A DNA stretch of 64,000 bases from Escherichia coli (GTDB lineage: Bacteria > Pseudomonadota > Gammaproteobacteria > Enterobacterales > Enterobacteriaceae), in assembly GCF_001677475.2 (NCBI RefSeq), contig NZ_CP015229.1; one strand, 5' to 3'. Positions 5,274 to 18,091 of this stretch are shown in pieces. How positions within the stretch are numbered: position 1 is the first letter of the stretch; each line of letters begins with the position of its first letter. The notes below the pieces were generated by a model, which saw only the letters and a list, made by a program, of their open reading frames with translations, did no database searches and was not told the origin of the DNA. A program made the translations under genes and the position numbers.

Positions 5274-6065
5274 TCAGAAGCGCGGCATACTTAAGCCGCC
5301 GTCGATGGCGACCGCCTGACCACAGGTGTAAATCAGTTTACCTTCCGCCATCGCGCGGACGGTGGAGGCAATATCAGCCGGATAACCCCAACGTCCCCAC
5401 GGCACCAGACCTTTGGCAATCAGTTCGTCGTAATAAGCCGTTGCTGGAATAGTCATATCGGTTTTGATGAGACCAGGGCGCACTTCATAGACGCCAATTT
5501 GTTCGTTGCAAAGGCGAGCAGCAAACAGACGAGCAGCGGCAGAAACGGCGGTTTTGGCAATTGTGTATTCGCCGCGATTCATCGCCAGCATGATGGCGTT
5601 GATGGAACTGACAAAAATAATTGAGCGGTGCGGGAATTCTGTTTCTGGTTTTGGCTGTGCGAGCAGACGTTTACTGAATGCCTGTGCAAGGAAGAACGGT
5701 GCGCGGGTGTTAATGGCAATATTTTGGTCGAAGCTGTCTGGTTCCAGGTCGAGAAGGTCACCGCGTTTTTTCACTGAAATGCCTGCGTTGTTGAGCAGGC
5801 AGTCCAGACGTCCCCACTGGTTTTGCGCTGCGTCGAGCATCTCTTCATGCAGGGAGAGATCGCCAACATCGGCAGGGAAGCAAATCACTTCCACGCCTTC
5901 CGCCAGACATTCTTGTTGTGTGACATGTAATTTTTCAACGCTATCGGCATCCGGACGATCATTAATCAGCAGATTAAATCCGCCACGCGCAAGCTCCAGC
6001 GCACAGCCCTTTCCAATACCACGAGCGGCTCCGGTAATCACGGCAACAGGACGAGTGGATTTCAT
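5274..6065 (-). CDS. Short-chain dehydrogenase/reductase (SDR), 263 aa
   Basis: N-terminal TGAARGIG cofactor motif and YxxxK catalytic motif (YTIAK); first gene of the five-gene operon. Confidence 0.8.
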   Translation of the reverse strand: MKSTRPVAVITGAARGIGKGCALELARGGFNLLINDRPDADSVEKLHVTQQECLAEGVEVICFPADVGDLSLHEEMLDAAQNQWGRLDCLLNNAGISVKKRGDLLDLEPDSFDQNIAINTRAPFFLAQAFSKRLLAQPKPETEFPHRSIIFVSSINAIMLAMNRGEYTIAKTAVSAAARLFAARLCNEQIGVYEVRPGLIKTDMTIPATAYYDELIAKGLVPWGRWGYPADIASTVRAMAEGKLIYTCGQAVAIDGGLSMPRF

Positions 6066-6133
6066 ACAATAGCTCTCTTTTTTTGAATTTTGTTTCCTTA
6101 GTGATGATTAGCTTGCGACTGGAGGATAAAAAG

Positions 6134-6155
6134 ATCAACCATCTAGTTGGTTGAT
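6134..6155. promoter_or_regulatory. Perfect 8-bp inverted repeat ATCAACCA-tctagt-TGGTTGAT in the divergent SDR/TetR promoter region; candidate TetR operator
   Basis: Palindrome read directly from the sequence; position between divergently transcribed regulator and operon. Confidence 0.4.
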
Positions 6156-6277
6156 ATGCGATGACGATCACAGGACATTTGATAACCTGATGAAAGTACA
6201 AGTTTTTGCCCTTTTTTCTGAAGCTGAAATCAAATCAGGTTATGATAGTCACCACGAAGAGGTCGTGGGGAAGCGTT

Positions 6278-6925
6278 ATGTATATTGATACCAGCAACGT
6301 ACAGAGCCTGAAGGAAAAGCTGCTGTTATGCGCGGTTAATGAATTTGCCGAATATGGTTATGAAGGGGCCAGGGTCGATAATATTGTTAAGTCTGCGGGG
6401 TGTAGTAAACAGACGGTTTATCACCACTTTGGTAATAAAGAAAATTTATTTATTGAAGTACTGGAATATACCTGGAACGATATTCGAAAAAAAGAAAAGG
6501 CCCTTGATTTCTCAGATCTTCCGCCACAAAAAGCCATTGAGAAAATTATTGATTTTACATGGGATTATTATATTGCTAATCCCTGGTTTTTAAAAATTGT
6601 GCATAGTGAAAATCAAAGTAAAGGTGTGCATTATGCAAAATCACAGCGTCTCTTAGAAATTAACCATGCGCACTTGCAGTTAATGGAATCCTTATTGGAG
6701 GAAGGGAAGAAACACAATATTTTTAAGCCAGATATCGACCCATTGCAGGTGAATATTAATATTGCTGCGCTTGGGGGATATTATTTGATCAACCAGCATA
6801 CGCTTGGCCTGGTTTATCACATCAGTATGGTTTCACCCCAGGCACTGGAAGCCAGACGTAAGGTCATCAAAGAGACGCTCCTTAGCTGGCTTTTGGTTGA
6901 CCCCTCATCTACCGCGCACGAATAA
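6278..6925 (+). CDS. TetR/AcrR-family transcriptional regulator (intact counterpart of the K-12 ytfA fragment, by recollection)
   Basis: N-terminal HTH region ([27 protein letters not shown]); ATG at 6278 preceded by a GGGGAAG Shine-Dalgarno-like sequence; the track ORF begins further upstream at a TTG. Confidence 0.75.
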
Positions 6926-7547
6926 AACTGCCATCCGGCTGACGGGTAAACAGGACCTGTTGATTATTCCCCGTATCAATGGTTAAGCCCGTCACCACGC
7001 CGCTGGCGTTCTGGCGGATTTTCACCATCTGCCCGTTTTGCAAATTACTCAGCGGCTTATCCGCGCCTTCTACCTGCGCCATTGCATAGACATCGGTAGC
7101 GGGCAGTCCGTGGTCGCGGAACAGCTGCGCCATCGTTTTACCGGGTTCGACACGGTAAGAGCGCCATTGATTATCAATTCCGCTATCTGGCTGGAATGGT
7201 TGCGTTTGGGTGGTTTGCGGCTGCTCTTCTGGCTGGCCTTCCTGTATTGGTTCTGGAGCGACCGGGGCCACCTGATCAGGATCATTTTGTGGCGTAACTA
7301 GCTGCGCCCGCAGCTGTTCTTCTGTCGGCAGTTGTGATTGCGACTGAATATCTAACTGCGCTTCACGCGTCACCACCGGCGCGTTGGGCGTATCATCAGA
7401 TGGAAGCAGAAATCCGACCACCAATACAATGGCGGCAATAATGATCCCCCGACGATGCATCGGCGGCAGCGGGTCCATGAAGCGAAAATTGTCCGGCGCG
7501 TGCCAGACTTTCTCCAGGGTTGGTTTTAGTTCAAAGCGCCCGGGCAT
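6909..7547 (-). CDS. ytfB: YtfB, OapA/LysM-domain cell-division-associated protein
   Basis: Translation matches the recalled YtfB (212 aa from MPGRFELKP); the track ORF is extended upstream. Confidence 0.85.
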
Positions 7548-15583: not shown

Positions 15584-16324
15584 ATGTTAGATCAAGTATG
15601 CCAGCTTGCACGGAATGCAGGCGATGCCATTATGCAGGTCTACGACGGGACGATACCGATGGACGTCGTCAGCAAAGCGGACAATTCTCCGGTAACGGCA
15701 GCGGATATTGCCGCACACACCGTTATCATGGACGGTTTACGTACGCTGACACCGGATATTCCGGTCCTTTCTGAAGAAGATCCTCCCGGTTGGGAAGTCC
15801 GTCAGCACTGGCAGCGTTACTGGCTGGTAGACCCGCTGGATGGTACTAAAGAGTTTATTAAACGTAATGGCGAATTCACCGTTAACATTGCGCTCATCGA
15901 CCACGGCAAACCGATTTTAGGTGTGGTGTATGCGCCGGTAATGAACGTAATGTACAGCGCGGCAGAAGGCAAAGCCTGGAAAGAAGAGTGCGGTGTGCGC
16001 AAGCAGATTCAGGTCCGCGATGCGCGCCCGCCGCTGGTGGTGATCAGCCGTTCCCATGCAGATGCGGAGCTGAAAGAGTATCTGCAACAGCTTGGCGAAC
16101 ATCAGACCACGTCCATCGGCTCTTCGCTGAAATTCTGCCTGGTGGCGGAAGGACAGGCGCAGCTGTACCCGCGCTTCGGACCAACGAATATTTGGGATAC
16201 CGCCGCTGGTCATGCTGTGGCTGCAGCTGCCGGAGCGCACGTTCACGACTGGCAGGGTAAACCGCTGGATTACACTCCGCGCGAGTCGTTCCTGAATCCG
16301 GGATTCAGAGTGTCTATTTACTAA
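15584..16324 (+). CDS. cysQ: 3'(2'),5'-bisphosphate nucleotidase CysQ
   Basis: 246-aa inositol-monophosphatase-family ORF. Confidence 0.95.
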
Positions 16325-16326
16325 AT

Positions 16327-16369
16327 TCAGATGGCAGAAACAGTGTATTTCCTGAATCTGCCATCCTGA
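16327..16369 (+). terminator. Hairpin downstream of cysQ (candidate terminator)
   Basis: GATGGCAG ... CTGCCATC stem directly after the cysQ stop; no strong T-run. Confidence 0.4.
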
Positions 16370-16535
16370 TTTCTCCCAACCTAAAAAGTTATAAATAAAA
16401 AGAGATTGTATTTAAAGTGCAAAAATTCAATTGCTAATAAGTTACATTTTAATAATGAGCGTTTTTTGATAGTTTACTTCTCTAATGAGATATTTAATGG
16501 CGACATAAAATAACCAAATAAAATAAGGTTGTCAT

Positions 16536-17447
16536 ATGTTACCCAGGATCAGACACAATAATTTTATTGGTGCGGTGGAGTTATTTGTAAAGTCTTCGTA
16601 TACAAAAACACATTCAAACAATTTTTTTAACAATATCCAGCATGCATTTAAGAAAAAAGATTGGATTTCAAATTATGATAGCCTGTTAACTTTGAGGGAG
16701 TTCTTTCGTTGCGCAACTCAGATTGATAAAAATAGTTATCAGGTACTTTCATCAAAAAATGAAACTGTTAACGCCATGGATAAGTTTCTTATCAGTTTCA
16801 GCCTTAAAGATAACGGTGCCGAATATATAATGACATTGCGAGGCAGTGGATTTGAATACGAAGAAATTCCCATAACAATAAATGAGTATAACTCATTCAT
16901 GGATTTCAAAAACCGCGAGTTTCCGTTAGAACAAAACAGAAGATTGTATGCCTGGGATATTCTGCAGAAAAAACAGTCTGACATACCGGAAAGGATTAAA
17001 GGTTATATTCGCCAGGCGTTTGGTGACGTGTCTTTAGGTTATGCTGTATTGGATGATATAGTAAGTAAATTAAAACGGGGTAAATTTGACCTCCAAATAC
17101 CAGGAGGTGGAATTAAAGAATGCGATGGATGGTATATTTACGAAAAAATAATTGATGATAATTTTGCCATAGTCATAGAATCTTTGGGCTTTGCGCTTAA
17201 AATCTATGGAGGGGATGAACGTTTTCGTAATGGTTCCTCTGTTGTTTTGGAGGATGAAGATTACTCTCTTATTTATAATTTTCTGGTTAATGCAGGTTGC
17301 CAACAAGTCGAATTAGCCGAACAAGTGGATGCGATAGTAAGTGCGAATCTGGCCGCAGATAGTGATATTACCGAAGAAAAGATTTGCGAGAAATATAAAT
17401 CGACCATTGAGGCGTTTAAAAAAAAGCAACTAGCGTTACCAGTATGA
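16536..17447 (+). CDS. ytfI: Uncharacterized protein YtfI (AT-rich orphan gene)
   Basis: 303-aa ORF with strongly reduced GC (roughly one third by eye) compared with its neighbours; position matches K-12 ytfI. Confidence 0.8.
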   Translation: MLPRIRHNNFIGAVELFVKSSYTKTHSNNFFNNIQHAFKKKDWISNYDSLLTLREFFRCATQIDKNSYQVLSSKNETVNAMDKFLISFSLKDNGAEYIMTLRGSGFEYEEIPITINEYNSFMDFKNREFPLEQNRRLYAWDILQKKQSDIPERIKGYIRQAFGDVSLGYAVLDDIVSKLKRGKFDLQIPGGGIKECDGWYIYEKIIDDNFAIVIESLGFALKIYGGDERFRNGSSVVLEDEDYSLIYNFLVNAGCQQVELAEQVDAIVSANLAADSDITEEKICEKYKSTIEAFKKKQLALPV

Positions 17448-17515
17448 GTTCGGCGTAAGAACTCAGAGGCTTAATTCCCCTATCCCATAGATAACGATAG
17501 GGGAAAATTATTTTT
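17446..17515. terminator. Bidirectional terminator region between convergent ytfI and ytfJ
   Basis: Two hairpins (GAGTTC-ggcgtaa-GAACTC and CCCCTATC...GATAGGGG) followed by an AT/T-rich tract. Confidence 0.55.
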
Positions 17516-17536
17516 GCAGAATTTATGTTATTGCCA

Positions 17537-18091
17537 TTATTTGAGCAACTTTTGCAGCAGGTCCATCACTTGCTGCACCTCTTCCGGTGTGAGCGCCCCG
17601 TCTTTGGCCCATTGCACGCGACCGTCTTTATCCAGCACCACTACAGCGGAACTTTCTTCATCCAGCTGCCAGGCACCGCGCGCGACGCCATTGCTATCGA
17701 CAATAAACTGCGACCAGGGATAAAGCTTTTTATTACTCTCCAGACTGCTGCGCACAAACATGCCGGAACCCGGAATTGCGTCGTCGGTGTTAACAATGGT
17801 GGTGGTCTGGTAACGATCGTGCGGTAACTTCGCTGATTTAATCGCTTCAATCAGCGTCGCGTTTTTCTCTTTTGCAGAGGTGCGACCAGCAATATGTTGC
17901 AGTACTCGCACTTTTCCCACTAACTGCGCGCTGTTCCAGGTTTTGTAGCTAAACTGATCTTTATCAAGCACCAACTCGCCACGATCGGTAATGCCAATCG
18001 GCGGCACTCGCTGACCGGTTTCGAACTGATGTGCGGAAGCCATCATCGGCAACAGCAGGCAGGTGAGTGCCAGAATCTTGCGTAGGGTCAT
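17537..18091 (-). CDS. ytfJ: Periplasmic protein YtfJ
   Basis: 184-aa ORF with N-terminal signal peptide; synteny. Confidence 0.9.
   Translation of the reverse strand: MTLRKILALTCLLLPMMASAHQFETGQRVPPIGITDRGELVLDKDQFSYKTWNSAQLVGKVRVLQHIAGRTSAKEKNATLIEAIKSAKLPHDRYQTTTIVNTDDAIPGSGMFVRSSLESNKKLYPWSQFIVDSNGVARGAWQLDEESSAVVVLDKDGRVQWAKDGALTPEEVQQVMDLLQKLLK

Follow-up and report, generated by a model that had tools for sequence, protein, structure and literature searches.

ytfI of Escherichia coli lies on an old, AT-rich, single-gene islet that appears to have split the cysQ/ytfJ overlap

Within a 64,000-nucleotide stretch of Escherichia coli DNA (NCBI RefSeq assembly GCF_001677475.2, contig NZ_CP015229.1; the whole stretch is referred to here as the window), the gene ytfI occupies an AT-rich block between cysQ and ytfJ. 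Taken together, the evidence makes it likely that this block is an old, self-contained one-gene islet that is coated by H-NS and whose protein product is dispensable, restricted to the genus, and conditional in its role. Comparison of occupied and empty sites supported the islet being a derived insertion that split an 11-bp overlap between the two neighboring genes.

Composition and anatomy of the islet

The ytfI open reading frame (ORF) begins with an ATG at 16536 and closes with a TGA at 17445-17447, and it is flanked by cysQ (15584-16324, + strand) and ytfJ (17537-18091, - strand). The gene order, cpdB-cysQ-ytfI-ytfJ-ytfK-paeA, is that of the E. coli K-12 map, with equal coordinates. A protein identical to the YtfI of the window is on record from E. 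coli. In K-12 itself, TTA replaces the TGA codon, giving an annotated protein of 312 amino acids, nine residues longer; the extreme C terminus is not conserved, and other alleles finish at 303, 306, or 307 amino acids.

The original prediction held that ytfI has a much lower G+C content (GC) than its neighbors, and this was borne out. The ORF has a GC of 35.8%, compared with 55.1% for cysQ, 52.4% for ytfJ, and 50.8% for the window, and GC at third codon positions (GC3) is 0.33 in ytfI versus 0.59 in both cysQ and ytfJ. The 211-bp leader upstream of ytfI is lower still (28.0%), and the interval 16322-17553 has a GC of 34.3%. Composition calculated in 912-bp windows was atypical, with ytfI lying approximately 2.9 standard deviations under the mean and only 3.2% of such windows being as AT-rich; these belong to three or four further AT-rich patches. 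The 300-bp GC profile drops to 0.28 to 0.40 exactly between the cysQ and ytfJ stop codons. Coordinates of the features are collected in Table 1.

Table 1. Features of the ytfI islet and of the corresponding junction in Escherichia albertii (dG, free energy of folding)
Feature	Position	Strand	Remarks
cysQ last codons and stop (TCTATTTACTAA)	16313..16324	+	Left copy of the ancestral cysQ/ytfJ overlap segment
AT-rich islet, 1212 bp, 34.6% GC (cysQ-ytfJ spacer)	16325..17536		One block, present or absent; starts directly after the cysQ TAA
Left hairpin, directly 3' of the cysQ stop	16327..16369	+	dG, -19.6 kcal/mol; z, -5.3
Sigma-70-like promoter candidate (TTGATA, 17 nt, GATATT, TG upstream)	16466..16494	+	9/12 matches, TG extension
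Shine-Dalgarno-like TAAGG, 7 nt upstream of the ATG	16524..16528	+	Read from the sequence; AGG conserved in all alleles
ytfI coding sequence, 303 amino acids	16536..17447	+	Soluble; isoelectric point, 5.35; no transmembrane segment (predicted)
Right hairpin pair (17445-17465 and 17475-17505), between the ytfI and ytfJ stops	17445..17505	+	Folding
Remodeled ytfJ 3' end (...LLQKLLK*, 184 amino acids)	17537..17560	-	Right copy of the ancestral overlap segment
Pentapeptide-repeat gene, 385 amino acids	L009:3852-5009; L013:3792-4949 (E. albertii)	-	Pfam PF00805; E value, 7e-12

Insertion site and ancestral state

Both cysQ and ytfJ were present in 5420 of 5426 complete E. coli genomes, and the ytfI islet was found in 1621 to 1623 of these. 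The span from cysQ to ytfJ measured 2508 bp at occupied sites versus 1288 bp at empty ones. In approximately 70% of E. coli, where the site is empty, cysQ and ytfJ share an 11-bp tail-to-tail overlap, and the junction reads TCTATTTATTAA, followed directly by the ytfJ tail. The same 11-bp overlap was identified in E. marmotae, E. fergusonii, and Salmonella enterica.

The 3' end of ytfJ also differs between the two states. At empty E. coli sites YtfJ is 185 amino acids long and ends in LLHKLINK, and in Salmonella, Citrobacter, Raoultella, E. marmotae, and E. fergusonii it is likewise 185 amino acids long, ending in LLHKLL(S/N)(K/R). At every ytfI-carrying site examined, YtfJ ends in LLQKLLK and is 184 amino acids long. 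The overlap, the His codon, and the extra codon are thus common to empty sites and outgroups, identifying the empty site as the ancestral state, and since deletion of the islet could not have rebuilt the states seen in the outgroups, ytfI is best read as an insertion. The islet is bordered on either side by a diverged copy of the overlap segment, (C/T)TATTT, and these copies allowed both neighboring genes to stay intact. The ytfJ tail adjoining the islet (GAGCAACTT) is closer to that of E. marmotae (AAGCAACTT) than to that of empty E. coli sites (TTAATTT). The base-exact anatomy of the site and its ancestral state are new in this analysis.

Like classical genomic islands and integrative elements, the islet is a block of foreign composition between conserved core genes. 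Unlike them, it comprises a single gene in just 1.2 kb and carries no integrase, tRNA target, insertion sequence (IS), terminal inverted repeat, or clean direct repeat.

Distribution and age

Homology searches together covered approximately 15 billion proteins, 100,044 species genomes, phages, and plasmids, and they confined ytfI to Escherichia and Shigella. A word-indexed search of 5.8 billion clusters returned 18 matches, all from these two genera, and an exhaustive HMMER profile search of 1.84 billion representatives yielded only short high-scoring fragments, which were taken as members of the ytfI family. TBLASTN searches of phages and plasmids and a scan of IMG/VR identified no relative outside Escherichia/Shigella; four "plasmid" matches were to chromosome-sized records or to one 655-kb record. 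In the 100,044 species genomes, two loci were found, one on an E. coli-like contig and one in a divergent Escherichia lineage (L005). The former (JAIJJM010000759.1), a 1501-bp contig assigned to a metagenome-assembled genome of "Collinsella sp.," shares 97% identity with the cysQ-ytfI-ytfJ region of the window and is almost certainly mis-binned E. coli.

In the divergent lineage, whose cysQ is 87 to 90% identical to those of E. coli, E. marmotae, and E. albertii, a 70%-identical allele encoding 306 to 308 amino acids also lies between cysQ and ytfJ. A 78%-identical allele was found in strains named Escherichia clade I, such as TW15838, and Shigella also carries ytfI, often in a shortened form. 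Synonymous divergence (dS) between the window and the divergent lineage was 0.69 for ytfI, 0.58 for cysQ, and 0.54 for ytfJ, and between the window and K-12 it was 0.075, 0.066, and 0.048, respectively. GC is 32 to 35% in all alleles, and the low GC has therefore persisted through a long residence. These comparisons indicate that the islet is an old rather than a recent acquisition. Its presence/absence state must either have moved between lineages through recombination in the flanking DNA or have been retained as a long-lived polymorphism. New here are the islet's age and its distribution among lineages. The original prediction of horizontal acquisition is supported as far as the insertion is concerned, given the 11-bp overlap in three outgroups and approximately 70% of E. 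coli; the event appears old, and no donor or vector was identified.

In E. coli XJ5.2 (L006:2501-3317), a copy of IS1A replaces all of ytfI except its first 63 bp, and cpdB is cut short by another IS1. The region of the islet is a target for IS-mediated loss.

Coding constraint and protein searches

The ytfI reading frame is unbroken at a dS of 0.69. Across the whole gene, the ratio of nonsynonymous to synonymous divergence (dN/dS) was 0.22 to 0.40, compared with 0.01 to 0.2 for cysQ and ytfJ. Constraint differed between the two halves, with dN/dS values of 0.11 to 0.16 for codons 1 to 150 (mean pairwise amino acid difference, ∼6 to 16%) and 0.23 to 0.62 for codons 151 to 300 (∼14 to 41%). Positive selection in the variable C-terminal half was considered and rejected, as no 50-codon window had a dN/dS above 1. 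This pattern indicates that ytfI is a protein-coding gene under purifying selection, which acts strongly on the N-terminal half and is relaxed over the C-terminal one; the evidence for coding constraint is new here.

YtfI is predicted to be a soluble 35-kDa alpha/beta protein. In agreement with the original prediction that it has no recognizable domain, Pfam and NCBIfam gave zero matches even at an E value of ≤10, and remote homology searches and structure prediction produced no confident match to a characterized family. Weak matches from PADLOC, PHROG, and T4 gp32 all lay within residues 70 to 163 (PADLOC and PHROG, residues 82 to 152) and were judged to be noise. The only PADLOC match, to Cas6b (E value, 1.2e-3; 16.7 bits; 41 residues), did not place YtfI among the defense proteins, and the likeness to the gp32 core seen with a single sequence (E value, 0.037) was gone with a six-allele profile. 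Searching that profile against solved structures returned only nitrogenase (E value, 0.83). The AlphaFold2 model of residues 148 to 303 (predicted local distance difference test [pLDDT], 68; predicted template modeling score, 0.61) comprised a helix, a five-strand meander, and further helices. No significant fold match for YtfI was found, and no internal duplication was detected between its halves. The breadth of this negative homology result is new here. With other enterobacterial orphan (taxonomically restricted) genes, ytfI shares the lack of homologues outside the genus, low GC, fast evolution, and dispensability; unlike them, it has coding constraint shown over a large divergence and an insertion site and ancestral state defined to the base.

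Hairpins, leader, and putative expression signals

Each end of the islet carries predicted secondary structure. The left hairpin, at the cysQ stop, is probably a cysQ terminator or an insulator, and its core (ATGGCAGAAACAGTGTATTTCCTGA.TCTGCCAT) is unchanged in five alleles save for one position, including the allele at a dS of 0.69. The right hairpin pair folds with a combined dG of -23.6 kcal/mol (z, -3.7) on the + strand and -24.4 kcal/mol (z, -2.7) on the - strand; its CCCCTA...TAGGGG stem is kept in all alleles, and it is probably a two-way terminator. The possibility that the end hairpins are dispersed repeats was ruled out, as they occur in one copy per genome and solely alongside ytfI. 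An Rfam search returned nothing credible.

Conservation is higher in the 211-bp leader than in the ORF (83.8% versus 78.5% identity to the divergent lineage). Within the leader, the promoter candidate has the same -35 hexamer in all five alleles, and the -10 hexamer is either GATATT or AATATT.

Two further observations concern the left hairpin. A mini-ORF of 12 codons (16331-16369) runs from ATG to TGA (MAETVYFLNLPS) and keeps its stop position in all five alleles; it lacks a Shine-Dalgarno sequence and hardly varies at the nucleotide level, so that its conservation looks structural rather than coding. Separately, the 3' end of cysQ (16289-16309; TTCCTGAATCCGGGATTCAGA) shares 16 of 21 bases with the 3' arm of the left hairpin (16349-16369; TTCCTGAATCTGCCATCCTGA), 60 bp away, and the hairpin beside cysQ in E. 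albertii also contains TTCCTGAAT. This likeness may be due to chance or may be a trace of the insertion event.

H-NS binding and earlier literature

The association with H-NS put forward in the original prediction has been reported. Higashi et al. (2016, PLoS Genet) presented ytfI as an example of a strain-specific inserted segment (S10 Fig), and by chromatin affinity precipitation sequencing found K-12 ytfI to be bound by H-NS, with binding spreading onto cpdB, cysQ, ytfJ, and ytfK; SE11 and SE15, which lack ytfI, showed no such binding (PMC4720273). ytfI as an H-NS-bound inserted segment is therefore already published. The gene and locus described there are identical to those analyzed here, AT-rich and missing from SE11 and SE15. 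The two accounts differ in that the insertion was regarded as K-12 specific in that study (PMC4720273), whereas here it was found in approximately 30% of E. coli, Shigella, clade I, and one further Escherichia lineage, and was found to be old and under purifying selection. Transcriptional silencing of ytfI was not found in the literature surveyed.

Other reports touch on ytfI in passing. Overexpression from the ASKA plasmid library allowed growth at three times the MIC of hypochlorous acid in a screen that listed the gene as uncharacterized (PMC8228696), and the ytfI region gave strong, disputed signals for sigma-32 and SeqA in microarray-based chromatin immunoprecipitation (ChIP-chip) (PMC3870955). 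The literature search found no paper that characterizes the YtfI protein.

An unrelated cargo at the E. albertii junction

In E. albertii, the cysQ/ytfJ junction holds a different cargo: a 1504-bp spacer (33% GC) with a gene for a 385-amino-acid pentapeptide-repeat protein on the ytfJ strand. One record labeled E. coli, with a cysQ 99.7% identical to that of E. albertii, also carries this E. albertii-type junction cargo. The two islets are alike in their insertion point within the 11-bp overlap, their single gene, their low GC, a hairpin by the cysQ stop, and a 184-amino-acid YtfJ, the tail of which was also remodeled in the E. albertii-type junction (LLHKLLT). They are unlike in that the E. 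albertii gene lies on the opposite strand and has a recognizable domain; the cargo was rejected as a ytfI relative, being unrelated in both DNA and protein. It follows from this unrelated cargo that the overlap was hit at least twice. The simplest reason for repeated use of the site is that insertion between convergent gene ends disturbs no promoter. No insertion mechanism shared by the two cargoes was found. The presence of an unrelated E. albertii cargo at the ytfI site is new here.

The pentapeptide-repeat protein itself has an N terminus rich in Ser, Thr, and Asn. Two type III effectors, PipB2 and PipB, matched it weakly and below the cutoff, with the matched positions corresponding. It could be an uncharacterized effector.

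Other AT-rich patches in the window

A patch at 5457-6970, where 912-bp windows fall below 40% GC, contains yjfZ (DUF2686 family) and a truncated TetR-family pseudogene according to the K-12 map. The most AT-rich parts of the window are 55976-58717 and 60193-61919, with a minimum of 29% GC near 57239. The former holds a 638-amino-acid ORF (56308-58224) and the latter a 407-amino-acid ORF (60578-61801). These are probably yjgL and yjgN of K-12 and look like further low-GC accessory genes.

Discussion

The reading that best accounts for these results would begin with insertion of the islet into the 11-bp cysQ/ytfJ overlap after Escherichia had split from Salmonella and E. fergusonii. The insert would be a self-contained unit comprising a hairpin, a 28%-GC leader in which a promoter-like site precedes a ribosome-binding site, the ORF itself, and a closing pair of hairpins. 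In K-12, as already published, H-NS coats it and spreads to the neighboring genes; ytfI would normally be silent, being expressed only upon relief of H-NS repression. The protein appears dispensable, given that approximately 70% of E. coli lack ytfI and that some carriers have truncated or disrupted copies. The islet would persist as a presence/absence polymorphism, with homologous recombination in the flanks moving it between lineages. As a guess, YtfI may be a conditionally useful accessory protein of the stress, immunity, or defense type that binds a partner, rather than an enzyme.

Several points weigh against this account. At the islet, no integrase, IS, or tRNA was found and there is only one ORF of any size; its ends show no terminal inverted or direct repeats and no clear target duplication; and neither a donor nor a vector was identified among phages, plasmids, IMG/VR, or non-Escherichia genomes. 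The islet shows no enrichment of the H-NS nucleation motif TCGATAAATT, and silencing, as distinct from binding, is inferred from the binding of H-NS. The promoter scan overall was not above chance (6 sites versus 4.5 expected), and the promoter and terminator roles come from consensus matching and folding only. The original prediction had described terminator hairpins on both sides. A consensus terminator scan called neither, because their loops are 8 to 11 nt long and no T-run directly follows; the hairpins were thus confirmed (z, -5.3 and -3.7), and their identity as terminators stays putative. AlphaFold2 modeled the full-length protein at low confidence (pLDDT, 53.6), and the functional guess draws no support from any homology. 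Truncation is also common among carriers, with a 251-amino-acid N-truncated cluster having 729 database members, and the truncated, shortened Shigella, and IS1-disrupted forms fit partial decay.

An alternative reading takes ytfI for an ORF without function, part of decaying junk DNA that persists only because silencing by H-NS renders it harmless. Its absence from most E. coli, the frequency of truncated and disrupted forms, a C-terminal dN/dS of up to 0.62, the lack of homologues, and the low-confidence fold would all suit such an ORF. However, the frame has stayed unbroken across a dS of ∼0.7, the N-terminal half has a low dN/dS (0.11 to 0.16) in every pair, and conservation of the leader and hairpins exceeds that of synonymous sites, which makes this explanation unlikely. 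AT-rich islands are usually read as recent horizontal transfers from low-GC donors, for instance phages or plasmids; for the ytfI islet, this reading draws on GC and GC3 values far under those of the host and on the patchy distribution. It seems very improbable indeed, given that ytfI dS matches or is greater than that of the flanks both within E. coli (0.075 versus 0.05 to 0.07) and between lineages (0.69 versus 0.54 to 0.58), that no phage, plasmid, or IMG/VR copy and no donor among the proteins searched was found, and that the alleles, all at 32 to 35% GC, show no drift toward host composition.

That divergence hides membership of a known class (anti-phage defense proteins, toxin-immunity proteins, or VirA/EspG-type effectors of type III secretion) is quite improbable. 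All scores were in the noise range, the models were of low confidence, and the T4 gp32 match did not survive the family profile; moreover, ytfI has no partner gene, does not lie in a defense island, and occurs in K-12, which is not known to have a working type III system. The converse of insertion, in which the Escherichia ancestor already had ytfI and the "empty" sites arose by deletion, could call on the 70%-identical allele at the same site in a divergent lineage, with dS near that of the flanks, and on the occurrence of IS1-mediated loss of most of the gene. The 11-bp overlap in Salmonella, E. fergusonii, and E. marmotae stands against it, as do the overlap, the His codon, and the extra codon of the 185-amino-acid YtfJ at empty sites, which a deletion could not rebuild; it is already largely refuted and hardly credible. 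Insertion of an old islet remains the preferred explanation. A bolder extension of it is that YtfI founds a new fold and was kept as a balanced presence/absence polymorphism through the history of the E. coli lineage for a conditional benefit (such as phage defense, toxin immunity, or host interaction), with the cysQ/ytfJ overlap a recurrent, integrase-free capture site for insulated, single-gene AT-rich cassettes, of which ytfI and the PipB2-like pentapeptide-repeat gene of E. albertii would be two independent cases; as a joint proposition, this is decidedly unlikely.

In itself, ytfI matters little, being an annotated K-12 gene whose nature as an H-NS-bound insertion was already published. 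Its value lies in offering a clean model: one gene in 1.2 kb with exact boundaries, a known ancestral state, natural carriers and noncarriers, and alleles that are 70 to 99% identical. Such a model could serve studies of how H-NS spreads from an insert to core genes, of why AT-richness lasts through a long residence, and of the roles of orphan proteins under selection. It also carries a caution, in that low GC need not signal recent transfer.
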